From contig CAZYPY010000002.1 in assembly GCA_964649545.1 (NCBI GenBank), forward strand, positions 7,050-71,049: a DNA stretch of 64,000 bases, given 5' to 3'. The notes under the pieces were generated by a model. It was not told the DNA's origin, did no database searches, and saw only the letters and a program-made list of their open reading frames with translations. Of this stretch, positions 2-44,111 are shown piece after piece (position 1 is the first letter of the stretch; each line of letters opens with the position of its first letter). The position numbers were made by a program, and so were the translations under genes. The DNA is from an uncultured Microthrixaceae bacterium. Its GTDB lineage: Bacteria; Actinomycetota; Acidimicrobiia; Acidimicrobiales; DATDAH01.

Positions 2-1042
2 GGCCTGATGACCGGGATGATCGACGGCATCGTGCCCACCGAGCGGCCGGGCCTCCACTTCGCCCACGCCACCTTCCCCCACATCCCGTGGCTGTTGAGC
101 CCGGAGGGCTACCAGTACGTGGTGTCCGACGCCCGCTTCGTGCCCGGCCTCGAGAACGGCGGCATCTGGACCGATGAGAACGACTACCTCGTCCGCCAGG
201 GCTTCGCCCGTCACCTGCTCCAGGTCGGCTACATGGACCGCATCGTCGGGGACATGATCACCCGGCTCGAGGAGCAGGGCCTGTGGGAGGACGCCCTCGT
301 CGTCGTCCTGTCCGACCACGGCGTCGCTTTCACGCCGGGCGAGAACTTCCGCAGCCCGCGGGCCGACACCGTCCACGAGATCTACAACATCCCCCTGTTC
401 ATCAAGTACCCGGGCCAGACCGAGGGCGAGACCAGCGAAGTGAACGCCCTGACCATCGACGTGCTCCCGACCATCGTCGAGGCCCTCGACATCGACACCG
501 ACTGGGAGTTCGACGGCCAGTCGCTGCTCGGCGACGGGCCCGACCGGGACTCGAAGCCGACCTACTGGGACGTGGGCCCCGACGAGGTGCCCGTCGACTT
601 CGACGGGGTCATGGAGGTCGTCGAGCGCGACCAGGAGTACCTGCCCAACGGCGACGACTGGCTCGGCGTGTTCGGCCAGGGCGAGTACGCCGACCTGGTC
701 GGCGCGCGCCTCGACGACCTCGACGTGACGGGCGACCGCGGCCTGACCTTCACGACCGACCAGGACGCCCGCCTCGCCGACTGGCAGCCCGACGCCGACG
801 GCCTGGCCCCGATGCTGCTCTACGGCACGATCGAGGGGGACGACGAGGTGCCGGACGGCGGCGTCATGGTGGTCAACGGTCGGGTCGCCGGTGTGGTCGG
901 CGACGTGAAGGCCGAGGACGGCCGGGTGACGTTCAATTCGCTGATCTCCGAGGAGATCCTCCAGCAGGGCGAGAACGAGGTCGTCCTGTTGATCCCGCAA
1001 CGGTCCGGCTCGCGCCAGTTCGAGACTGCCACACTCGGGTGA
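2..1042 (+). CDS. Sulfatase/LTA-synthase-like (alkaline phosphatase superfamily) protein, C-terminal part; 5' end lies outside the window
   Basis: The frame is open from the window edge. The translation (HLLQVGYMDRIVGDMITRLEEQGLWEDALVVVLSDHGVAF...NIPLFIKYPG) is a clear paralog of the C-terminal domain of the next gene. G/C-ending codons dominate. Confidence 0.7.
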   Translation, partial: GLMTGMIDGIVPTERPGLHFAHATFPHIPWLLSPEGYQYVVSDARFVPGLENGGIWTDENDYLVRQGFARHLLQVGYMDRIVGDMITRLEEQGLWEDALVVVLSDHGVAFTPGENFRSPRADTVHEIYNIPLFIKYPGQTEGETSEVNALTIDVLPTIVEALDIDTDWEFDGQSLLGDGPDRDSKPTYWDVGPDEVPVDFDGVMEVVERDQEYLPNGDDWLGVFGQGEYADLVGARLDDLDVTGDRGLTFTTDQDARLADWQPDADGLAPMLLYGTIEGDDEVPDGGVMVVNGRVAGVVGDVKAEDGRVTFNSLISEEILQQGENEVVLLIPQRSGSRQFETATLG

Positions 1043-3342
1043 TGGTGGACGTGGCCGCGACCGGGGCGACCCCCGTCGTCGAACGGGAGGACGCCCGTCC
1101 GGCCGGCCATGTGAGCGTCTGGCGGCGGGTCGCGGCCCGGCTCGAGCTGCGTGAGGTGCTCGGCTACGACTTCCTGTCGCTCCTGGCCCTCTCGGGGCTC
1201 GCGGTGGCCCAGCCGCTGCTCGACCTGTTCGGGAAGAACCCCGAGTTCTTCGTGGCCGCCGAGGCCACCCGGGCCCAGATCGTGGCCTTCGGCCTCGCCG
1301 TCGCCTTCGGCGTGCCCCTCCTCGCCGTCGTCGTCGAACTGGTCGCCCACGCCGTCGGCCACCGCGTCGGCGCCGCCGTCCACACGGGCCTCGTCGCCCT
1401 GCTCGGCACCGCCTTCGGCGCCACCGTCGCCCGCCAGTTCGACTTCTCGTCGAACCTGCCGGTGGTCGCCGTGTCGCTCGCGGTGGGCGTGGCCATCGCC
1501 GTGGCCGAGCGTCGCACCAAGGCCATGCGGCTCGGCCTGCGCTACCTCGCCCTCGCCCCGGTGCTCTTCCTCGCCCTGTTCCTCCTCACCTCCGGCACCT
1601 CCCGCCTGCTCTGGGAGGACGAGGCCCAGGCGGCCACGGGCGTCGCCGTCGCCGATCCGCGCCCGATCGTGCTCATCGTGTTCGACGAGCTCCCGGTGGC
1701 GTCGCTCCTCGGCCCCGACGGCCAGATCGACGAGACCCGCTTTCCGAACTTCGCCCGGTTGGCCCAGCACTCGACGTGGTTCCGCAACGCCACCGCCCTG
1801 TCACCCAACACCCCGGGCAGCGTGCCCACCATCCAGAGCGGGCTGAACCCGGCGAGCGGGGCGCTGCCCACGTCGGTGGACTACCCGCGGAACCTCTTCA
1901 CCCTGCTCGGCGGCGCCTACGACCTCGACGTCACCGAGACCATCACCCAGGTGTGCCCCAGCACCTTGTGCACCCGACCCGAGAGCGCCCCCGACCAGGG
2001 GTTCCTCCACGGCCTCACCCGCACCCTCGAGGACGCCTACATCGTCTACGGGCACGCCACCCTGCCGCCCTCCCTGCGGGAGGACCTGCCAGGCGTCGAC
2101 CAGTCGTGGGGCGGCTTCCTCGAGGAGGCCGCCGACGCCACCGACATCGACGGCAACGCGATCGACGCCGGGTCCTCGGGTCCGTCCGGCTCGGCGGCGC
2201 CGGTGACCACGACGACGTTCCCCGAGGGCATCACCGACTTCATGGCCGCCCGCAACCAGGCCATGGCCGCCGACCTGCCCGAGGGCACGGGCGGGCCCAT
2301 GGCCGCGATGATCGACCGCATCGGGCCCGAGGACGAGTCCCGCCTGTACTTCGTGCACGACGGGCTCTTCCCGCACTTCAACTGGCGCACCACCCCCGAC
2401 GGTCGCACCTACGCCGGCGAGGGCGGGCCCCCGGGCTCGGTCGACGGCCGGTGGGGGGCGAACGAGTTCCTGATCCGCGAGGGCCAGCAGCGCCACCTCC
2501 TGCAGGTGGGCTACGCCGACACCCTGCTCGGCGAGCTCATGGACCGCCTCGAGGAGCAGGGCGTCTGGGACGACGCCATGATCGTCGTGACCGCCGACCA
2601 CGGCATCGCCTTCACCGCCGACCACGACAAGCGGGCGCCGAGCGACGAGACCGTCGACGAGATCTACCGGGTGCCGATGTTCATCCGGGTCCCCGGCGAG
2701 CGCGAGGGCGAGGTCGACGACGGCAACGCCCTCAACACCGACGTCCTGCCGACCATCGTCGACGTCCTCGGCATCGACACCGACTGGGACTTCGACGGCC
2801 GTTCGCTGTTCGGGGACGAGCCGCCGCCGGACGACAAGCCGGTCTTCTACGGCACGGGCCCGTCCTCGGTCTCGACTTCGCTCGACGGCCTGTTCCAGGT
2901 CGCCGCCCGCAACCACGAGCGCTTCGACGAGCCCGGTTGGGACGGCGTCGTCGCCGTCGGCGGCCTCGGCCGGTACGTGGGCCGCCTGGTCAGCTCGATG
3001 GGGGTGACCCCGGTGCCCGAGGACGTCGATGCCGATGCGGCCTGGCGCCTCCAGCACCCCGAACGCTTCGAAGCGATCCCCGCCGAGGGCGGCCGGATCC
3101 CCCTCGTGGTCGAGGGCTCGCTCGACCTCGAGCCGGGCCACGAGCCCGCGGACGTGGCGCTGGTGGCGCTGAACGGCACCGTGGCCGGCGTGGCCGGCGA
3201 CTTCCACGAGGAGAACGGCCGCTGGCACTTCCGCGCGCTGCTCGACTACCGCCTGTTCACCGAGGGCGACCACGAGGTGGCGCTGCTGATCGTGGGCCGC
3301 GGTGGCGACGAGCCCACCTTCTACGAGGTGCCCCGCCGGTAG
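1042..3342 (+). CDS. Membrane-anchored sulfatase/LTA-synthase-like (PF00884-type) protein
   Basis: The ATG at 1042 overlaps the upstream stop (ATGA). The N-terminus has several hydrophobic helices. The catalytic-type domain follows (IVLIVFDELP..., LSPNTPGSVPTIQSG, HLLQVGYADTLLGELMDRLEEQGVWDDAMIVVTADHGIAF). The 283-1041 part of the supplied ORF is Arg/Pro-rich shadow sequence. Confidence 0.75.
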   Translation: MVDVAATGATPVVEREDARPAGHVSVWRRVAARLELREVLGYDFLSLLALSGLAVAQPLLDLFGKNPEFFVAAEATRAQIVAFGLAVAFGVPLLAVVVELVAHAVGHRVGAAVHTGLVALLGTAFGATVARQFDFSSNLPVVAVSLAVGVAIAVAERRTKAMRLGLRYLALAPVLFLALFLLTSGTSRLLWEDEAQAATGVAVADPRPIVLIVFDELPVASLLGPDGQIDETRFPNFARLAQHSTWFRNATALSPNTPGSVPTIQSGLNPASGALPTSVDYPRNLFTLLGGAYDLDVTETITQVCPSTLCTRPESAPDQGFLHGLTRTLEDAYIVYGHATLPPSLREDLPGVDQSWGGFLEEAADATDIDGNAIDAGSSGPSGSAAPVTTTTFPEGITDFMAARNQAMAADLPEGTGGPMAAMIDRIGPEDESRLYFVHDGLFPHFNWRTTPDGRTYAGEGGPPGSVDGRWGANEFLIREGQQRHLLQVGYADTLLGELMDRLEEQGVWDDAMIVVTADHGIAFTADHDKRAPSDETVDEIYRVPMFIRVPGEREGEVDDGNALNTDVLPTIVDVLGIDTDWDFDGRSLFGDEPPPDDKPVFYGTGPSSVSTSLDGLFQVAARNHERFDEPGWDGVVAVGGLGRYVGRLVSSMGVTPVPEDVDADAAWRLQHPERFEAIPAEGGRIPLVVEGSLDLEPGHEPADVALVALNGTVAGVAGDFHEENGRWHFRALLDYRLFTEGDHEVALLIVGRGGDEPTFYEVPRR

Positions 3343-4363: not shown

Positions 4364-6490
<2,127 letters not shown>

Positions 6491-27645: not shown

Positions 27646-28926
27646 ATGAGCAAGGTCGCCGTCATCGGGGCGGGCTACGTCGGATTGACGACCGCTGCGT
27701 GCTTCGCCCACCTCGGCCACGAGGTCTTCTGCGCCGACATCGATGCCGAGCGGATCGCGCAACTGCAACGCGGTGAGGTGCCCATCCTCGAGGCCGGGCT
27801 CGAGCAGCTCGTGGCCGAGGGCATCAAGTCCGGTCGCCTGCACTTCGTGCTCGGGGCGGCGCGGGCGGCCGAGCAGGCCGAGTTCTCCTATCTGAGCGTG
27901 CCCACCCCGCAGGGCCACGACGGGCGCGCCGATCTCTCCTACATCGAGGCCGCCGCGCGCGAGATCGGCCCGGTCCTGCCCCCCGAGGCCATCGTGGTCA
28001 ACAAGTCGACGGTCCCGGTGGGGTCGACCCGCGTGGTCGAGCACGCGCTGGGCCGCAGCGACGTGTACGTGGTGTCGAACCCGGAGTTCCTCCGCGAAGG
28101 CTCCGCGGTCTCCGACTTCCTCCACCCCGACCGGGTCGTCATCGGCAGCGAGGACCAGGGCGCGGCCATCCGGGTCGCGTCGCTCTACGTGGGCGTTCCC
28201 GCGCCGCTCATGGTCACCGACCCGGCGTCGGCCGAGACCATCAAGTACGCGAGCAACGCGTTCCTCGCCACCAAGCTCTCCTTCGTCAACGCGGTGGCCG
28301 CGGTGTGCGAGGCGGTCGGCGCCGACGTGAACGACGTCGTGCTCGGGATGGGCTACGACAAGCGCATCGGGCACGACTTCTTGAAGCCCGGACCCGGCTA
28401 CGGCGGCTCGTGCTTCCCCAAGGACACCTCCGCGCTGATCCGCATCGCCGAGGACGGTGGGTACGACTTCCGGCTGCTGAAGGGCGTGGTCGACGTCAAC
28501 GAGGAGCAGTTCGACCGGGTCGTCCGCAAGGTGACCGAGATGGCCGGCGGCTCGCTCCAGGGCGTCACCGTCGCGGCCTGGGGACTCACCTTCAAGGCCC
28601 GCACCGACGACCTCCGGGAGTCGCCGGCACTGCAGATCCTCGGCCGGATCCTCGCCGAGGGCGCCACCGTGCGGGCCTACGACCCGGCGGTCACCGGTTC
28701 GGTGTCGACCCACCCGGCGATCGAGGTCTGCGACGACCCGTACGCACCGTGTGCCGGGGCCCACGTGCTCGTCGTCCTCACCGAGTGGGACGAGTTCCGC
28801 TGGCTCGACCTCGACAAGGTCGCCGAGACCATGGCCGAGCCCGCCGTCATCGATGCCCGGAACCTGCTCGACCGCTCCGCCGTGCAGCGCCGCGGCTTCC
28901 GGTTCGAGGGCATCGGGCGCCGCTGA
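27646..28926 (+). CDS. ugd: UDP-glucose 6-dehydrogenase
   Basis: [27 protein letters not shown] catalytic Cys motif. Confidence 0.92.
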
Positions 28927-28927
28927 C

Positions 28928-29869
28928 GTGGGTCGGGTCGTCGTCACCGGCGGGGCCGGCTTCCTCGGTTCGCACCTGTCCACCCTGCTGGTCGAGCGGG
29001 GCGACGAGGTCGTCGCCGTCGACGACCTGTCGACGGGCTCGCGGGACAACCTCGCCCACCTCGACGGCCACGAGCGCTTCACGTTCGTCGAGCACGACGT
29101 CAGCGCCGGCCTCCCCGTGTCGGGCGCGGTGGACGGCATCGTGCACATGGCGAGCCCCGCTTCGGTGCCGGACTACCTCTCGCGGCCCATCGAGACCCTC
29201 GACGTCGGCAGTCTCGGCACCCGCCACGGCCTCGACCTGGCCCGGGTCACGGGCGCCCGCTTCGTGCTGGCCTCGACCAGCGAGGTCTACGGCGACCCGC
29301 TCGAGCACCCCCAGACCGAGGCCTACTGGGGCAACGTCAACCCGGTCGGGCCGCGCAGCGTCTACGACGAGGCCAAGCGCTTCGCCGAGGCCATGACCAT
29401 GGCCTTCCACCGCACCCACGGGGTCAGCGTCGGGATCGTGCGCACGTTCAACACCTACGGCCCCCACCTGCGCCCTTCCGACGGTCGGGTGGTGTCGAAC
29501 TTCCTCGTGCAGGCCCTGCGGGGCGAGCCCCTCACCGTGTACGGCGACGGCACCCAGACCCGCAGCTTCTGCTACGTCGACGACCAGGTGCGGGGCTACG
29601 CGGCGCTGCTCGACACGCCCGGGGTCACCGGTCCGGTCAACATCGGCAACCCGGTCGAGTTCACCATGCTCGAGCTCGCCGAACTGGTGATCGAGGTCAC
29701 GGGCTCGTCGTCCACGGTCACCCACGAGGACCTGCCGGTCGACGATCCGACGCAACGCCGCCCCGACATCACCCTGGCCGGCGAGCAGCTGGGCTGGAAG
29801 CCCACCATCGAGCTCCGCGACGGCCTCGAGCGCACCGCCGCCTGGCTGCGGGAGCGCCTCGGCCGGTAG
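28928..29869 (+). CDS. uxs: UDP-glucuronate decarboxylase (UDP-xylose synthase)
   Basis: [29 protein letters not shown], and [14 protein letters not shown], which is typical of UXS. The GTG lies 2 nt after the ugd stop. Confidence 0.85.
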
Positions 29870-29990: not shown

Positions 29991-30953
29991 TCAGACGGGG
30001 CGGGCCTCGGCCTCGTCGCGGTGCTCGAGGTACCAGGCGTGGGTCGCGGCGAGGCCGTCGGCGAAGCTGGTGGTGGCCTTGAAGCCGAACGCGGCCTCCG
30101 CCCGCCCGGCATCGACCCGGCGTCGGGGCTGGCCGTCGGGCTTGGAGTGGTCCCAGACGATCTCGCCCTCGAAGCCGGTCACCTCGACGATGGTCTCCAC
30201 GAGCTCGGAGATCGGGGTCTCGTGGTTCGCGCCCAGGTTCACGGGGTCGCCCTCGTCGTAGTGCTCGGCCGCCAGCAGGATGCCTTCCGCAGCGTCGTCC
30301 ACGTAGAGGAACTCGCGGCTGGCCTGACCGGTGCCCCACACCACGATGTGGTCGTCGCCGGCCTCCTTGGCGTCGACGCACTTCTTCATGAGCGCGGGGA
30401 TCACGTGCGAGACGTCGGGGTGGAACTTGTCGCCCGGGCCGTAGAGGTTGGTGGGCATGAGGTAGACGGCGTTCTGGCCGTACTGCGCACGGTTGGCCTG
30501 CGCCTGCATCAGCTGCGCGAGCTTCGCGATGCCGTAGGGCGCATTGGTCTCCTCGGGGAAGCCCTGCCAGAGCGAGTCCTCGGAGAACGGCACCGGCGTG
30601 AACTTGGGGTACGAGCAGATCGTGCCGATCATGACCGTCTTCGGCGTCTCGCGGCGTCGTGCCTCCTCGAGCACGTAGGTGCCCATGAGCAGGTTGTCGA
30701 GGTACAGGTCCGCGGGGCGCTTCTGGTTGGCGCCGATCCCGCCGACCCGCGCCGCCAGGTGGATGACCAGGTCGGGCTCGGTCTCGGCGAACAGCGCCTC
30801 GGTGGCGTCCGGTCGACGCAGGTCGAAGTCGGCGCTGCCGGGCGCCATGACGTGGGCGGCGCTGCGGGCGTCGAGGCCGGCGAGCACGGCTCGGCCGAGG
30901 AAGCCGCGACCACCCGTGACCAGCACGCGTCGATCGGCCCAGAACGCGGTCAC
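29991..30953 (-). CDS. fcl: GDP-L-fucose synthase (GDP-4-keto-6-deoxymannose 3,5-epimerase/4-reductase)
   Basis: VLVTGGRGFLG, PTNLYGPGD, GTGQASREFLYVDD. The GTG at 30953 has GGAG 8 nt upstream. Confidence 0.85.
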   Translation of the reverse strand: MTAFWADRRVLVTGGRGFLGRAVLAGLDARSAAHVMAPGSADFDLRRPDATEALFAETEPDLVIHLAARVGGIGANQKRPADLYLDNLLMGTYVLEEARRRETPKTVMIGTICSYPKFTPVPFSEDSLWQGFPEETNAPYGIAKLAQLMQAQANRAQYGQNAVYLMPTNLYGPGDKFHPDVSHVIPALMKKCVDAKEAGDDHIVVWGTGQASREFLYVDDAAEGILLAAEHYDEGDPVNLGANHETPISELVETIVEVTGFEGEIVWDHSKPDGQPRRRVDAGRAEAAFGFKATTSFADGLAATHAWYLEHRDEAEARPV

Positions 30954-35341: not shown

Positions 35342-36351
35342 GGGCGGTCGTGCTGGTGGGCGGGTTCGGCACCCGCCTACGTCCGCTCACCGCCCACACC
35401 CCGAAGCAGATGCTGCCGGTGGTCGATCGGCCCATGATCGAGCACGTGGTGGCCCACCTGGCCGAGCACGGTGTCGACGATGCCGTGCTCTCGCTCGGCT
35501 ATCGCCCCGACGCGTTCCTGGAGGCCTACCCCGAGGGTCGCTGCGCCGGCGTGAGCCTGCACTACGCGGTCGAGCCCGAGCCGCTCGACACCGCCGGCGC
35601 CATCCGCTTCGCGGCGCTCGACGCCGGGATCGACGACACGTTCGTGGTCCTGAACGGCGACGTGCTCACGGATTTCGACCTCGGCAAGCTGCTGTCGCGC
35701 CACGCCGAGGCGGGTGCCGAGGGCACCATCCACCTCACCCCGGTGGACGACCCGTCGCGCTACGGCGTCGTCCCGACCGACGAGGACGGCCGGGTCGAGG
35801 CCTTCATCGAGAAGCCACCCCGCGAGAGCGCACCCAGCAACTGGATCAACGCCGGCACCTACGTGCTCGAGCCCTCGGTGATCGGGCGCATCCCCGATGG
35901 TCGCCGGGTCTCGATCGAGCGTGAGACCTTCCCGGCCATGGTCGCCGCCGGTTCGCTCTACGCGGTGGAATCCGACGACTACTGGATCGACGCCGGGACG
36001 CCCGCCGCCTACCTGCGGGCACAGCTCGACCTGATCGACGGCCATCGGGCCGCCGGCCCGGTCGACGGCGTGAGCCCGTCGGCGCTGGTCGACGAGGCGA
36101 CGGTGCGCCACTCGGTGCTCATGGACGGCGTGGTGATCGAGGAGGGCGCGGTCGTGATCGATTCGGTGCTGCTGCCCGGCGCCCGCGTGGAGTCGGGCGG
36201 GGAGGTCACGGGCTCGGTGATCGGGCCCGGAGCGCTCGTCGAGGAGGGTGCGGTCGTCACCAACCTCTCGGTGCTCGGCGAGGGTGCGGTCGTGGAGGCA
36301 GGCGAGCTCCTCGACGGCGAGACGCGCCCGGACGAGGAGGGCGGATCGTGA
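35338..36351 (+). CDS. manC: Mannose-1-phosphate guanylyltransferase-like NDP-sugar pyrophosphorylase with a left-handed beta-helix tail
   Basis: AVVLVGGFGTRLRPLTAHTPKQMLPV. The hexapeptide-repeat C-terminus resembles mycobacterial Rv3264c. Confidence 0.82.
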   Translation: MRAVVLVGGFGTRLRPLTAHTPKQMLPVVDRPMIEHVVAHLAEHGVDDAVLSLGYRPDAFLEAYPEGRCAGVSLHYAVEPEPLDTAGAIRFAALDAGIDDTFVVLNGDVLTDFDLGKLLSRHAEAGAEGTIHLTPVDDPSRYGVVPTDEDGRVEAFIEKPPRESAPSNWINAGTYVLEPSVIGRIPDGRRVSIERETFPAMVAAGSLYAVESDDYWIDAGTPAAYLRAQLDLIDGHRAAGPVDGVSPSALVDEATVRHSVLMDGVVIEEGAVVIDSVLLPGARVESGGEVTGSVIGPGALVEEGAVVTNLSVLGEGAVVEAGELLDGETRPDEEGGS

Positions 36352-37295
36352 GGGCACTGGTCACGGGCGGGGCCGGGTTCATCGGGTCGACCCTGGTCGA
36401 CCGCCTTCTGGCCGAGGGCCACCAGGTCGATGTGGTCGACGACCTGTCGTCCGGCAACCTGGCCAACCTGGCCGACGCCCGGGCCGACCGGGACCACCCC
36501 GTCACCTTCCACCAGATCGACATCCGTGACGAGGCGGTGGTCGAGCTGATGACCCGCCAGCGGCCCGAGGTCGTGTTCCACCTCGCCGCCCAGGCCGACG
36601 TGCGGGTGTCGGTGGCCCGTCCCGCCTACGACGCCCAGATCAACGTGGTGGGGAGCCTCAACGTGCTCGAGGGCGCCCGGGCCGCCGGTGCCCGCAAGGT
36701 CGTGTTCGCCTCCAGCGGCGGCACCATCTACGGCGAGCCCGACCCCTCCGAGCTGCCGGTCAAGGAGTCGCACCCGCAGCAGCCCCTGTCGCCCTACGGC
36801 GTGGCCAAGAAGGTGGTCGGCGACTACCTGTACGCCTACCGGGCCCTCCACGGCCTCGAGTACACGGCCCTGGCCCTCGCCAACGTCTACGGGCCCCGCC
36901 AGGACCCGCACGGCGAGGCGGGCGTGGTCGCCATCTTCACGGGCAGGCTGCTGGCCGGTGAGCCCTGCACGATCTTCGGCACCGGCGAGCAGACCCGCGA
37001 CTTCATCTACGTCGACGACGTGGTCGACGCCTTCGTCCGGGCCGCGGACCGCGGCAGCGGCCTGCTCGCCAACGTGGGCACCGGCCGTGAGGTCTCGGTG
37101 AACGAGCTCTACGACACGATGGCCGCGGCCGCCGGCGTCACCGAGCCCGCCCTGCGGGCCCCGGCCCGCGCCGGCGAGCTCGACCGCTCGGCCCTCGACA
37201 ACGGCCGCGCCGAGCTGCACCTGGGCTGGACGCCCTGGACCACCCTCGAAGAGGGCACCCGGCAGGTCATCGACTGGTTCCGCGCCCGCGCCTGA
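36348..37295 (+). CDS. galE: NAD-dependent sugar epimerase (UDP-glucose 4-epimerase-like)
   Basis: ALVTGGAGFIGSTL, YGVAKK (YxxxK). 4-nt overlap with manC. Confidence 0.7.
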   Translation: MRALVTGGAGFIGSTLVDRLLAEGHQVDVVDDLSSGNLANLADARADRDHPVTFHQIDIRDEAVVELMTRQRPEVVFHLAAQADVRVSVARPAYDAQINVVGSLNVLEGARAAGARKVVFASSGGTIYGEPDPSELPVKESHPQQPLSPYGVAKKVVGDYLYAYRALHGLEYTALALANVYGPRQDPHGEAGVVAIFTGRLLAGEPCTIFGTGEQTRDFIYVDDVVDAFVRAADRGSGLLANVGTGREVSVNELYDTMAAAAGVTEPALRAPARAGELDRSALDNGRAELHLGWTPWTTLEEGTRQVIDWFRARA

Positions 37296-38145: not shown

Positions 38146-39081
38146 TCATGCGGCGAGGACGGTGCGGCCGAGGGCGGCGGCCTCGTCGGGTCCGGACATG
38201 ATCGTCGGAGCCACGACGCAGTGCATCCCCTCGGCCTCGACCGCGGGCGCCAGGTCGACGTCGGCCTCGTCGATCACGAGGGTGGCGGCCAGGTCGCGGT
38301 AGAGGCGGGCCACGCCGACGACGGACGACTCGTGCCCGAGCTCGCGGAGCAGCCGGTCGGCGGGGCCCTTGAGAGCGGCGCCAGCGATGATCGGCGTCAC
38401 CGCCACCGTGTCGGCCCGGCGGGCCGTGACCGCCTCCCGCACGCCCGGGACGGCCAGCAGCGGGCCGATCGAGACGATGGGGTTCGACGGCGCGATCACG
38501 ACCCGCTCGGCGCCGGCGAGGGCGTCGAGCACGCCGGGGCCCGGGAGGGCGGCGTCGGCGCCGTCGAAGCGCACGGACCGCACGTCGACGTCGTGGCGGC
38601 GCCGCACGAAGTACTCCTGGAAGCCGATCTCGGTGACGTCGCCGTCGCCCTGCTCGTCGATCGTGACCATGGTGCGGAGACGGTCGTCGGTGACGGGCAG
38701 CACCGTCAGCCCGAGCTCCCAGCCCCGGACGATCTCGGCGGTGACCTCGGAGAGCGGCGCCCCTTCGGACAGCCGCTGGGTGCGGTAAAGGTGGGTGCCG
38801 AGGTCGCGGTCACCGAGGTTGAACCAGGTGATGCCGCCGTAGCGGCGCAGGGTGTCCATGGCCTGCCACGTCTCGTCGACGAGGCCCCAGCCGGTCTCGG
38901 GGTTGATGGCGCCGGCGAGCGTGTAGGTGACCGTGTCGAGGTCGGGGCTCACGTGCAGACCGTGCAGCTCCACGTCGTCGGCGGTGTTCACCACCGCGGT
39001 GACGTCCTCGGCGGGGTGCACCGCCAGGATCCCGCGCAGGAGCCGGGCGGCGCCGACCCCGCCGGCGAGGACGGTGATCAC
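38146..39081 (-). CDS. cofD: 2-phospho-L-lactate transferase (CofD/FbiA)
   Basis: [16 protein letters not shown]...VVNTADD...[18 protein letters not shown]. The GTG start overlaps the gmd stop (GTGA). Confidence 0.9.
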
Positions 39082-41087
39082 GGGTGCGACAGGTCGTTCA
39101 GGTCGCCATTGAGCAGGGCGATGTCGGCATCGACCATCATCTCGACGAGCTCCCGGAAGCTGACCCGGGGCTCCCAGTCGAGCTGGCGCTTGGCCTTGCC
39201 GGGGTCACCGACGAGCAGGTCGACCTCGGCGGGGCGCATGAAGCGCTCGTCGATCACCACGTGGTCCTGGTAGTCGAGGCCGGCGTGCGAGAACGCGATC
39301 TCGCAGAACTCGCGCACCGAGTGGGTCTCCCCGGTGGCGACGACGTAGTCGTCGGGCTCGTCCTGCTGGAGCATCGCCCACATGGCCTCGACGTAGTCGC
39401 CGGCGAACCCCCAGTCCCGCTGGGCCTCGAGGTTGCCCAGGTGCAGCTCGGACTGCCGCCCGAGCTTGATCTGCGCCACCCCGTGGCTGATCTTGCGGGT
39501 CACGAACTCGAGCCCGCGGCGGGGGGAATTGTGCACCGTGACGAAGCCCACGCCGGCGGCGAAGCGCCCGGACTCGGTCGCGAGATCGCACATCCAGCCG
39601 CGGTACGGCTGGCGCTCGACCTTGCGGACCTCCTCCTGCGGCTTGCGCAGGTGCGCCCCCTTGTCGCCGACGGTCAGACCCGGGCTCAGGTTGATGAGGT
39701 AGCTGTCGCCGCCGCCGAGGGCCCCGCCCTGCCGGTAGACCGACACCCGGCGCCCGAGGGTCGTCCGGGCGAGCCACACGAGCCCGGCCGCCAAGACCGG
39801 CGACGTCGTGCGGAACGACTTGAAGGGATCGATGCCGTGACCGGCCTTCAGCCCGTCGCCGAGGTTGTAGCCGACGAGGAACGCCTCCTGGAGGTGCGGT
39901 GCAGCGTTGAGGATCCGCTTCGGGACGCGCTTGTGCCCGTCGGCGCAGTACAGCTCGTAGCGGAGGAGGCGGGCGTAGGCGGGGTTGCCCGAGAGGTACA
40001 GCTGCGGCACGTGGCGGTCCGAGAAGGCGGACGGCGAACCCTCCGACTTCCGAGCCTTGCCGGCGGTGACCCGCTCCCAACAGGCCGCGGCCTGGGCGAG
40101 CGTGGCGTCGTCGTTCCCGGTGATCTGCACCGCGCTGCGGTCCTTCGCGACGTGGCCATCGGCGACGAGGAGACCGAGCAGCCACGCCTCGTCCTCGGTG
40201 AGGACGGTGTTCAGGGTGCTCATCGGCTGGGCGGCCATGCGGAGCTGGTCCCCGGCCTCGAACTTCTGGGCTTCCTTCTCGTCGTCGGGGGTGAACACGA
40301 CGTGGTCCGGGGTGGTCTCGACGACCCCGGCGCGGCCGTGCACGGTGATCGAGTCGCCCTCGTACCAGTGGGCCGTGCGCGCGGTGCACCGGACGAAGTC
40401 GGTGCCGTCCCACACCTCGAGCTGTCCGTCGGGCACCGAGACGTAGCCACCGGGCTCGTCGTCCCTCGGGAAGGGGATGAGCGAGCCGATCGAGACGATG
40501 TCGATCAGCCCGTCTCGACGAATAACGACAGGTGATTCAGGAATCAAAGATTCGTGGTTAAACAGCATGCCGGATGACGCGTGGAGGCCGTAGGACTCGC
40601 GGTAGTTGATGGTGATCCAGTGGCCGTAGACCTTGGCCACGCCGTAGGGGCTGCGGGGGTAGAGCGGGGTGGTCTCGCGCTGGGGGACCTCGACCACCTT
40701 GCCGAACATCTCGCTCGAGCTGGCCTGGTAGAAGCGCACGTCGGGGTCGACGATGCGGATGGCGTCGAGCAGGCGGGTGACGCCCAGCGCTGTGGTCTCG
40801 CCGGTCAGCACCGGCTGGCTGAACGAGGTCTGCACGAACGACTGGGCGGCGAGGTTGTACACCTCGTCGGGCCGGTGCTCACGGAGCACCTCGATGAGCG
40901 ACGCCTCGTCGAGCAGGTCACCGGGGGCGAAGGTGATGCGGTCCTGGATGTGCGCGATGCGCTCGTAGTTCACGGTGCTGGTGCGCCGCACCATGCCGAT
41001 GACCTCGTAGTCCTTGGCCAACAGCAGCTCGGCCAGGTAGGAGCCGTCCTGGCCGGTGATGCCGGTGATGAGGGCGCGCTTCTTCAT
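39078..41087 (-). CDS. gmd: GDP-mannose 4,6-dehydratase precursor containing a 341-aa intein
   Basis: N-extein [21 protein letters not shown]...[10 protein letters not shown]...GMLFNHE. C-extein [13 protein letters not shown]...[13 protein letters not shown]. Together they total 328 aa and recreate NHESPRRG. Confidence 0.92.
39528..40550 (-). mobile_element. Class 1 intein with a LAGLIDADG homing-endonuclease domain, inserted in gmd
   Basis: Starts with Ser ([14 protein letters not shown]). Block B is TPDH. Dodecapeptide motifs [11 protein letters not shown] and [12 protein letters not shown]. Ends FVTVHN, followed by the +1 Ser of the C-extein. Coordinates were checked codon by codon. Confidence 0.88.
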
Positions 41088-41735: not shown

Positions 41736-42650
41736 TCAGCCCGTCGTGGCGGGGGCGACCACGGTGCGCCAGTGGGCGAGCAGGTCGCCCAGGGTCTGGT
41801 GCAGCGGGATCTCGGGCGTCCAGCCCGTCGCGGTGCGCAGACGGGTGTTGTCACCCCGCAGCACCGGGATGTCGACCGGGCGCTGGAGGGCGGGGTCGGC
41901 CTCGAGGCGCATGGGCCGCTCGGCGAGCTGCACCAACTGCTCGGCGAGCTCGGCGACGGCCACGTCGTGGCCCGAGCAGACGTTGTAGACCTCGCCGGGC
42001 TCGCCGTGGAGCACGAGCAGGCGGTACGCCCGCACCACGTCGCGCACGTCGGTGAAGTCGCGCCGAGGGGTGAGGTTCCCGACCGGCACGACGTCGCCGC
42101 CCTCGGCCTCGTTGCGGGCGACCCGGTGGGCCAGGGCGGAGGCGACGAAGCGGTCGGTCTGGCCCGCGCCGAGGTGGTTGAACGCCCGCACCCGGAGCAC
42201 GCCGAGGCCCCGCCCGAGGAAGGCCTGGAGGGCGAGGAAGTCGGCCGAGACCTTGGAGGCGGCGTAGGGGCTCACGGGGCGGAGGGGCGCATCCTCGTCG
42301 AGCGGGAGCTCGGCCTGGGTCACCCGCCCGTACACGTCGGCGCTGCTCACCGCGAGCACGCGTGGTACCTCGACGGCCGCGCAGGCCTCGAGCACGTTGA
42401 GCGTCCCTTCCGCATTGGCCCGGAAGGTCTCGACCGGCGCCGACCAACTGCCGCCCACGTCGGCCTGCCCCGCCAGGTGGTAGACCGCCTCGGGGCGGAC
42501 TCGCTCGAGCAGGTCGTGCCAGGCGGTCGAGTCGAGCAGGTCGGGCCCGTCGTGGCGGTCGACACCCACGACCTCGTCGCCCTCGGCCTCGAGGTGCTCG
42601 CTCAGGTAGTGGCCCACGAAGCCGTGCGCGCCGGTGATGAGGGCCTTCAC
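41736..42650 (-). CDS. rmd: NAD-dependent SDR, GDP-4-keto-6-deoxy-D-mannose reductase (Rmd)-like
   Basis: KALITGAHGFVGHYL, SSADVYG, YAASKV. GTGA overlap with the upstream GT4 gene. The specific substrate is inferred from family resemblance and the nearby gmd. Confidence 0.65.
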   Translation of the reverse strand: MKALITGAHGFVGHYLSEHLEAEGDEVVGVDRHDGPDLLDSTAWHDLLERVRPEAVYHLAGQADVGGSWSAPVETFRANAEGTLNVLEACAAVEVPRVLAVSSADVYGRVTQAELPLDEDAPLRPVSPYAASKVSADFLALQAFLGRGLGVLRVRAFNHLGAGQTDRFVASALAHRVARNEAEGGDVVPVGNLTPRRDFTDVRDVVRAYRLLVLHGEPGEVYNVCSGHDVAVAELAEQLVQLAERPMRLEADPALQRPVDIPVLRGDNTRLRTATGWTPEIPLHQTLGDLLAHWRTVVAPATTG

Positions 42651-43768
42651 CGCGCCGAGTGTACGACTCGCCGGTAGAGGCCGATGAGCCGGTCGGTCGC
42701 GACGTCCCAGGAGAACCCCGCGGCCCGCTCGCGGCCGGCGGCGGCGAGGGCCTCGCGAGCAGCCTCGTCGCCGAGCAGCGCGGCGACGGCACCGGCCAGG
42801 GTCTCGGGGTCGCCCGGCGGGACGAGCCGCGCGGCCGCACCGAGCACCTCGGGCAGCGATCCCGCGGTCGAGGCGACGACCGGGACCCCGGCGCTCATGG
42901 CCTCGAGGGGCGGGAACCCGAACCCCTCGTAGACCGACGGGTAGGCGAACACGGTGGCGCCGTGCACGAGCGCGTCGCGGTCGGGGTCGTCGACCCACGC
43001 GAGGCGCACGATGCGGTCGCGGTGGCGGGCGGCGGCCACGGCGGCGGCGAAGGCGTCGACCCCCCAACCGTCCGGGCCGGCGACGACGAGGTGAACGTTC
43101 GGGTCGTCGTCGGCCACGAGGTCGAAGGCGGCCACGAGGGTGGGGAAGTCCTTGCGCGGTTCGATGGTCCCGAGGGCGAGGAGGTAGCGGTCGGCGCCGG
43201 CCAGGGCGCGGCCTCGAGCCGGGTCGGCGGGGGTGAGCGGCGTCAACCCGTCGTGGATAGCCACCACGCGCTCGGGGTCGACCTGGAAGTGGTCGCGGAT
43301 CTCGTCGGCGACGAAGTGCGACCCGGTGTGCACCCACGCCCCGCGGTCGATCGCCGCCTGGATGAGCGGGGGGAAGGCGAGCGTGTCGCGGGTGCACAGC
43401 TCGGGGAAGCGCACGGGTGTGAGGTCGTGGACGGACACGACCGCGGCGCCCCGGGTGGGCGGGACCACGTAGTTCGGGCCGTGGACGAGGTCGATGGGGC
43501 CGGTCCACCACTCGATCGGCGGGCCAGCGAAGCGTGACCACGCCTCGCGCAGGGGGCGAGCGGCCATGGGTCGACCCATCGCCGTGACGCCGGCCGGGAC
43601 CAGTCCGGCCAGGCGGCCCCGGCCTCGCCACGTCGCGGCGTACGCCCGCACGTCCAGGTCGGGGTGGGCGCCGAGCCGGGCGAGCACCTCGTAGGCGTAG
43701 ACGCCGACACCGGTCCGTGGGCCGAACAGCGGGGTGGCGTCGTAGGCGACGCGCAGTGCCGGAGGCAT
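42647..43768 (-). CDS. Glycosyltransferase family 4
   Basis: LRVAYDATPL...GTIEPRKD...AYPSVYEGFGFPPLEAMSAGVPVVAS. Confidence 0.8.
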   Translation of the reverse strand: MPPALRVAYDATPLFGPRTGVGVYAYEVLARLGAHPDLDVRAYAATWRGRGRLAGLVPAGVTAMGRPMAARPLREAWSRFAGPPIEWWTGPIDLVHGPNYVVPPTRGAAVVSVHDLTPVRFPELCTRDTLAFPPLIQAAIDRGAWVHTGSHFVADEIRDHFQVDPERVVAIHDGLTPLTPADPARGRALAGADRYLLALGTIEPRKDFPTLVAAFDLVADDDPNVHLVVAGPDGWGVDAFAAAVAAARHRDRIVRLAWVDDPDRDALVHGATVFAYPSVYEGFGFPPLEAMSAGVPVVASTAGSLPEVLGAAARLVPPGDPETLAGAVAALLGDEAAREALAAAGRERAAGFSWDVATDRLIGLYRRVVHSAR

Positions 43769-43798
43769 TCCGGCGGTGCTCGCGGGCCGGCCCGGCCG

Positions 43799-43990
43799 CT
43801 AGCGGCCGAAGACCTGCTGGCCCAGGCCCTCGAGGCGCGTCTGGAGCTCGCGTCGCTGCACCTGCGCCTTCTGGAAGGTCAGCACGCCGGCGCCCACGCC
43901 GAGGTACACGGCGTCCATGGCGACCTCGGCCAGGTCGGCCACGGCAGAACCGAGGCGGCGGTCGAACAGGTCGGTGACCGAGCCGGACAT
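43799..43990 (-). CDS. Small hypothetical protein (63 aa)
   Basis: MSGSVTDLFDRRLGSAVADLAEVAMDAVYLGVGAGVLTFQKAQVQRRELQTRLEGLGQQVFGR. Only this distal part of the 136-aa ORF has protein-like composition. Confidence 0.45.
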   Translation of the reverse strand: MSGSVTDLFDRRLGSAVADLAEVAMDAVYLGVGAGVLTFQKAQVQRRELQTRLEGLGQQVFGR

Positions 43991-44111
43991 GCTCACCAAG
44001 GTATCGATGGCGTGAAACAACAGCAAGCACTCGAGCGAGTGTCGGAGGTCACGGAGACGGGTGCCGGGGGTCACCGAAACGGGCCGCGCGCCCGGGTAGG
44101 TTGGCCCGATC

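Follow-up and report, generated by a model that had tools for sequence, protein, structure and literature searches.

What is the segment that interrupts the GDP-mannose 4,6-dehydratase (Gmd) gene of an uncultured Microthrixaceae bacterium, and can an enzyme still be expected from a gene built in this way? The gmd gene lies in a stretch of 64,000 nucleotides of contig CAZYPY010000002.1 (assembly GCA_964649545.1, positions 7,050 to 71,049), which was analyzed as a whole and is referred to here as the window. An original prediction, made by a model from the sequence alone, held that the insert is a full-length class-1 intein with a LAGLIDADG homing endonuclease, a combination that is textbook knowledge among inteins. 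Residue conservation across 80 alleles, a predicted fold, profile homology, purifying selection and the existence of intein-free alleles support this proposal, and we conclude that gmd very probably contains a splicing-competent class-1 intein with a double-motif LAGLIDADG endonuclease domain.

The precursor is encoded by a single open reading frame (ORF) of 669 codons plus stop, which starts with ATG and occupies 39078..41087 on the minus strand, as do all of its parts described below. The N-extein (40551..41087) comprises Gmd residues 1-179, contains the Rossmann GxxGxxG, SSSEMFG, and YGVAK motifs, ends in GMLFNHE and aligns to residues 14-194 of the Pseudomonas aeruginosa Gmd structure 1rpn. 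The C-extein (39081..39527) comprises residues 521-669 and begins with the +1 Ser of SPRRG (codon 39525..39527). Between them lies the 341-amino-acid (aa) intein (39528..40550), precursor residues 180-520, which runs from Ser1 to His340-Asn341. Direct translation gives the junctions GMLFNHE/SLIPESPV at the N-terminal and VTVHN/SPRRG at the C-terminal side (slashes mark splice junctions); the host motif is split as NHE/SPRRG, about 25 residues past the YxxxK catalytic motif of Gmd, and joining the exteins (179 + 149) yields 328 aa with a contiguous NHESPRRG. Aligned with intein-less Gmd, the two flanking stretches match and the insert does not: 1rpn is matched with an E-value of 4e-122 over precursor residues 2-180 and 519-658, the curated equivalog model TIGR01472 (gmd) scores 442.4 bits against a cut-off of 415 with the intein still in place, again in two stretches with the gap unmatched, and PF16363 matches the 669-aa ORF above threshold with 445 bits, likewise in two stretches. 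The coordinates, residues and junctions originally proposed for the insert were all borne out by translation and by the 1rpn alignment.

The insert itself shows the domain order of an endonuclease-bearing intein. Its HINT N-lobe (40209..40550, intein residues 1-114), which is beta-rich in the AlphaFold2 model, opens with block A (SLIPESPV) and contains the block-B motif TPDH at residues 80-83 (40302..40313), the source of T80 and H83. The predicted LAGLIDADG homing-endonuclease domain (39660..40208, residues ~115-297, boundaries approximate) is alpha/beta in the model; direct translation places its first motif, LLGLLVADG with the acidic residue D131, at 40155..40181 and the second, which contains YNLGDG with the acidic residue D232, at 39846..39881. 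The HINT C-lobe (39528..39659, residues 298-341) carries blocks F (CDLAT) and G (VHN), with the codon for Asp322 of block F at 39585..39587. There are four Cys residues in the intein (55, 157, 202, and 321). The 669-codon frame is uninterrupted, and the GC content at third codon positions (GC3) is 0.93-0.98 along the whole gmd ORF. The 64-kb window contains no second gmd, and Rfam and tRNA scans of it found no RNA genes.

Natural alleles without the insert delimit it precisely. With the predicted spliced product as query, we found intein-free Gmd sequences (P0055-P0058) whose length is exactly 328 aa, whose identity to the query is 99, 98, and 95%, and in which NHESPRRG is contiguous, just as had been expected from removal of the insert. 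The intein-free loci share the synteny of the window (helix–turn–helix regulator-gmd-cofD-cofE-GalE-like-ManC-like), and their contigs show 90-94% DNA identity to it on both flanks, with an exact 1023-bp indel at 40550/39528. The empty site reads TTC AAC CAC GAG/TCG CCC CGC CGC and differs from the window flanks by synonymous changes only; in locus L081, where the intein-free gmd occupies 421..1407, the site is ATGCTGTTCAACCACGAG/TCGCCCCGCCGCGGC. With these empty alleles, the splice boundaries are as nearly proven as they can be from sequence, and the empty site is probably the homing site.

Relatives of the intein were collected with the insert as query and then in a scan in which each GTDB species was represented by one genome; statements about individual loci rest on the best 80, of which 79 are complete and the 80th ends at a contig edge. 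The first search returned 54 proteins, all but one recognized as Gmd bearing the same insert, and in the scan, relatives of the intein turned up in the genomes of at least 285 species, spread over many phyla. All 79 complete alleles are stop-free and in frame at FNHE/...N/SP(R, M or I)RG. Among the 80 alleles, 55 have Cys at position 1 of the intein and 25, the window included, have Ser; T80, H83, D322, T325, N341, and the +1 Ser are invariant throughout, and the penultimate His (H340) is present in all but one. This pattern differs from that of a non-splicing domain without conserved junctions, one of the two outcomes that the original prediction had named as its refutation. Of the two catalytic acidic residues in the endonuclease, the first is retained in 75/80 alleles and the second in 76/80, and both D131 and D232 are intact in the window. 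When 1.84 billion cluster representatives were searched exhaustively with phmmer, 540 clusters were obtained at E <= 1e-3; among the matches listed, most are ~670-700 aa long and match from about residue 185, which corresponds to the Gmd architecture. Distant relatives of the intein also occur in other hosts, for example in a subtilase (P0262) and in a LigD-like protein (P0233).

Structure prediction and profile comparison agree with this assignment. The AlphaFold2 model of the intein, built from the family alignment, has a mean predicted local distance difference test (pLDDT) score of 90.8 and a predicted template modelling (pTM) score of 0.91. Its top PDB matches in Foldseek are the homing-endonuclease inteins TliVMA and PhoVMA together with PI-PkoII and PI-SceI (E 1e-20 to 3e-8, probability 1.0). 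Lower down, mini-inteins match the beta-rich lobes (probability 1.0), and I-DmoI, I-SceI, I-Tsp061I, and the endonuclease domains of PI-SceI and PI-PkoII match model residues ~118-300. The family profile aligns end-to-end with the TliVMA intein (E 7.6e-15) and also matches PI-PkoII, PhoVMA, and TFIIB mini-inteins, while individual family members match Pfam LAGLIDADG_3 (6 of 10, best 1.9e-11) and Intein_splicing (3 of 10, best 2.7e-5). The ratio of nonsynonymous to synonymous substitution rates (dN/dS, Nei-Gojobori) indicates purifying selection on the intein, with values of 0.09-0.33 in ten pairs and 0.12-0.13 between the window intein and its closest intein relatives, L001 and L002; the exteins are likewise under purifying selection.

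Three other classes of intein-related elements were considered and rejected. A class-3 intein (WCT) does not agree with a position 1 that is always Ser or Cys, nor with the replacement of the block-F residue Cys321 by Tyr or Phe in relatives. A bacterial intein-like (BIL) domain was set aside in view of the invariant enzyme motif that serves as the site, the invariant +1 Ser and the presence of a LAGLIDADG domain. Finally, a naturally split intein is at odds with the single uninterrupted ORF found in the window and in all 79 complete alleles.

For a class-1 intein of this kind, the 74-kDa precursor would be translated and its HINT domain would fold, after which Ser1 would undergo an N-to-O acyl shift helped by Thr80 and His83 of block B. 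Attack of the +1 Ser on the resulting ester (transesterification) would produce a branched intermediate, and cyclization of Asn341, helped by His340 and Asp322, would free the 37-kDa intein; an O-to-N shift would then create a normal peptide bond and thereby an active 328-aa Gmd. Because the invariant NHESPRRG motif is divided by the insertion, the precursor presumably lacks activity, and Gmd would presumably depend on splicing for its function. Products of ~36 kDa (Gmd) and ~38 kDa (intein) had been predicted earlier, whereas the computed masses are 37.1 kDa for spliced Gmd and 37.0 kDa for the free intein, so that a plain gel would be unable to resolve the two. The endonuclease domain, in turn, probably cuts intein-free gmd at TTCAACCACGAG/TCGCCCCGCCGC, and repair of the cut allele would copy the intein in. 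Such homing would explain the patchy cross-phylum distribution of the family.

The distribution of the intein among close relatives points to mobility. The nearest relatives by flank identity (90-94%; among L081-L088) are without the intein, whereas L001 and L002, two intein-bearing Acidimicrobiales metagenome-assembled genomes (MAGs) from independent assemblies, are collinear with the window across the gene at ~82% flank DNA identity. Since the closest flanks lack the intein and the more distant ones have it, either a recent gain in the window lineage or precise losses in its sisters must be assumed. L001 and L002 have exteins that are 98% identical and inteins that are 82% identical, while many cross-phylum pairs show the reverse, with inteins 65-73% and exteins 53-61% identical, among them pairs with ~73% for the inteins and ~55% for the exteins; overall, intein and extein identities correlate weakly (r = 0.44). 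As judged from these comparisons, the histories of intein and extein are decoupled. In addition, one Gmd protein (P0046, 482 aa) has a natural 165-aa mini-intein at the same site, without an endonuclease domain. Patchy presence, decoupled histories and the mini-intein together fit the standard cycle of homing, fixation, decay, and loss, as far as sequence comparisons can trace it.

Two of these relatives have further features of their own. In P0046, a Gly/Arg-rich linker stands in place of the endonuclease domain and all splice motifs are retained, and its C-extein is ~9 residues short, lacking a segment (KLG...LG) that is present in other Gmd proteins. P0053 (449 aa) consists of frameshifted pieces of intein and Gmd C-extein; either the gene is a pseudogene in decay or the assembly is rich in indels.

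Several observations weigh against the view of a splicing and homing element. Taken alone, the window intein stays below the Pfam cut-offs, with 15 bits against 35.8 for Intein_splicing, 17.7 against 22.5 for LAGLIDADG_3 and 20.1 against 21.1 for Hom_end; in the intein model search suggested at the outset, the significant matches come from the family, through the TliVMA profile match and the Pfam matches of relatives. Splicing and DNA cleavage themselves we infer. Furthermore, Gmd and glycan clusters are themselves horizontally mobile, so that part of the decoupling between intein and extein could reflect transfer of whole genes. The synonymous divergence (dS) is higher in inteins than in exteins, which could partly result from stronger codon bias in the exteins (GC3 of 0.97-0.98, compared with 0.93 in the intein). 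Co-conversion tracts were considered as evidence of recent homing and rejected: codons ending in A or T are enriched over 20 extein codons to either side of the site to an equal degree in intein-bearing (odds ratio 2.2) and intein-free alleles (odds ratio 2.4).

These points bear most directly on the endonuclease. We lean towards an enzyme that is still active in the window intein, and hold it to be rather unlikely, if far from negligible, that the intein splices with a dead endonuclease and is a fixed, vertically inherited passenger instead of an active homing element. The sub-threshold Pfam scores of the window endonuclease domain would suit such a passenger, and the codon usage of the intein (GC3 0.93) is fully host-adapted, which suggests long residence. 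Decay does occur in the family, since the first acidic residue is lost in 5/80 alleles and the second in 4/80, and since a mini-intein exists. In the window, however, K235 is intact together with D131 and D232, and the low dN/dS relative to the closest relatives extends over the whole intein; neither the absence of the intein from the most similar flanks and its presence beside the ~82% ones, nor the decoupling of intein and extein identities, is what vertical inheritance would lead one to expect. That the insert does nothing of the kind, and is instead an accessory domain that does not splice, the remnant of a pseudogene or an artefact of assembly, is barely conceivable. The single-sequence Pfam results and the one frameshifted relative, P0053, could be read in this way, but the intact 669-codon frame with host-like GC3, the conservation of all splice residues, the HINT and LAGLIDADG fold of the model, the purifying selection on intein and exteins alike and the recurrence of the same architecture in independent assemblies from many phyla all speak against it.

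The original prediction went further and made intein splicing a point of control over the entire glycan system, which is speculation. Conditional splicing is documented for other inteins, and here it would be a switch, working after translation, on how much GDP-4-keto-6-deoxymannose reaches the Fcl and Rmd branches. Gmd catalyzes the committed step, Fcl-like and Rmd-like genes are both present in the window, and the intein interrupts an invariant motif of a precursor that is presumably inactive. The sequence indicates no sensor, however, and both junction nucleophiles are Ser, which makes a disulfide trap of the Cys1/Cys+1 kind impossible; Cys321 is not maintained either, relatives having Tyr or Phe in its place. 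Moreover, very close relatives run the same operon without an intein, which is therefore dispensable. We consider a switch of this type, responding to temperature, redox state, metal or substrate, highly improbable. A splicing-competent class-1 intein with an endonuclease that is probably still active thus remains our preferred reading of the locus.

A local anomaly in codon usage was observed at the N-terminal splice junction. Within 40512..40559 (gmd codons 177-192, spanning the junction 40550/40551), 11 of 16 codons end in A or T (TTT AAC CAC GAA/TCT TTG ATT CCT GAA TCA CCT GTC GTT ATT CGT CGA), compared with 3.5% in the remaining ORF (binomial probability 4e-13, or ~3e-10 corrected for window position). 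The rest of the intein has a GC3 of ~0.96, and relatives show a weak version of the patch. Short-word blastn against all fetched loci matched the conserved extein part only and found no donor for the A/T-rich patch, which may stem from a short stretch of conversion or serve as a pause site made of rare codons. If the intein were a conditional switch, the patch could pause translation and thereby set the order in which extein and intein fold.

Directly downstream of gmd, and also on the minus strand, lies cofD (38146..39081; TIGR01819, 324 bits), whose GTG start shares a 4-nt GTGA overlap (39078..39081) with the gmd stop; this overlap with cofD, to which gmd was said earlier to be translationally coupled, is real. 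The same 4-nt overlap is found in the intein-free loci L081, L084, L085, and L086 and is therefore unrelated to the intein. cofE (TIGR01916, 264 bits) lies downstream of gmd and cofD. The claim that fcl and an rmd-like reductase are encoded nearby holds for the most part. An Rmd-like reductase is present at 41736..42692 on the minus strand (best PDB match 2pk3, 2.7e-63), and an Fcl-like gene is found ~9 kb from gmd at 29991..30947 on the same strand, matching NF047922 end to end with 304 bits, below the strict cut-off of 500. The ORF at 36348..37295 on the plus strand, considered as an fcl beside gmd, was rejected as such and encodes a GalE-like short-chain dehydrogenase/reductase (SDR) (PDB 7ys8, 1.8e-93). 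A further extended-SDR enzyme at 28916..29869 on the plus strand has its top scores with dTDP-glucose 4,6-dehydratase, LegB, and GalE models, all below cut-off. Including Gmd and the Fcl-like, Rmd-like, and GalE-like proteins, five SDR sugar enzymes are thus encoded within 14 kb, and a ManC-like gene and WcaI-like and other GT4 glycosyltransferases are located nearby. The Rmd-like gene is contained in a 764-aa ORF (41736..44030, minus strand), of which, by homology, only the C-terminal ~310 aa (41736..~42680) are a real gene; the upstream part overlaps a GT4 glycosyltransferase in another frame (42647..43768), a typical high-GC artefact.

A full-length gmd intein was reported in 2022 from Thermosynechococcus sp. 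TA-1 and CL-1 and from the Indian MAG M46_R2017_013, in a list that gives neither site nor mechanism (PMC9403480); in our literature search on inteins with GDP-mannose, gmd or Ndse, this was the sole gmd report found. The original prediction had left aside whether the insertion site was already catalogued. The Thermosynechococcus loci L055, L056, and L078 (the last being M46_R2017_013) have a homologue at the identical site, FNHE/C...HN/SPRRG, with an endonuclease domain as in the window; it differs in its cyanobacterial host, in having Cys1 instead of Ser1 and in being only 38-39% identical. The window intein is therefore an ordinary new member of a widespread, already reported gmd intein family. 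Its best structural matches, TliVMA (7qsu/7qss) and PhoVMA (7qst; E 1e-20 to 6e-19), have the same order of HINT N-lobe, LAGLIDADG domain, and HINT C-lobe, whereas these archaeal VMA inteins reside in the V-ATPase A subunit, start with Cys1 and share 16-20% identity with it. PI-SceI (1vde/1ef0/1lws) and PI-PkoII (2cw7) are likewise class-1 inteins with a double-motif LAGLIDADG domain (probability 1.0), although, with 454-537 aa, both exceed the window intein in size and their identity to it is 14-17%. Experiments have demonstrated splicing as well as homing for PI-SceI and PI-PkoII.

Gmd has at least two natural intein sites, since two proteins, P0181 (1087 aa) and P0226 (1043 aa), contain two inteins each, one of them at NHE/SPRRG. 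The second site lies at the catalytic S/T-x-E motif and reads YQAS/S...LAHN/SSEMFG in P0181 and YNAG/C...SGN/SSEEFG in P0226. InBase is also said to list Trichodesmium "Ndse" inteins in a nucleotide-sugar epimerase. Other nucleotide-sugar enzymes, the archaeal UDP-glucose/GDP-mannose dehydrogenases (COG1004), are described as intein hosts of the same COG category M in the 2015 survey (Novikova et al. 2016, PMC4760082); they are archaeal and unrelated to Gmd in host fold and insertion site. The survey assigns 83% of bacterial inteins to COG categories L and F (replication/repair and nucleotide metabolism), and its top-15 list of the commonest bacterial intein hosts does not include Gmd (PMC4760082).

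The intein also has consequences for how gmd genes are annotated. In many database entries, gmd is called from a Met or Val that lies within the intein, and this happens on long contigs too (P0008, P0010, P0011, P0021, P0026, P0029, P0041, and P0045). For P0021, located at 6001..7020 in L015, the underlying DNA is one intact ORF. Such internal starts look like a systematic mis-annotation of intein-bearing genes that mimics a split gene, and as a consequence gmd can appear truncated or absent in genomes of Acidimicrobiia, Chloroflexota, cyanobacteria, and others. Family models and gene callers often mishandle intein-bearing gmd.

Taken together, these results describe a well-populated intein allele in a nucleotide-sugar enzyme, present in at least 285 species and belonging to an uncharacterized family. 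Its Ser1/Ser+1 variants, which have no junction Cys, and the 165-aa mini-intein might be developed into splicing reagents that are insensitive to redox conditions. The near-isogenic empty alleles in the same operon provide a natural substrate for homing studies outside replication genes. For the organism itself, a conditional switch, if true, would gate the supply of GDP-4-keto-6-deoxymannose and hence the composition of cell-surface glycans.

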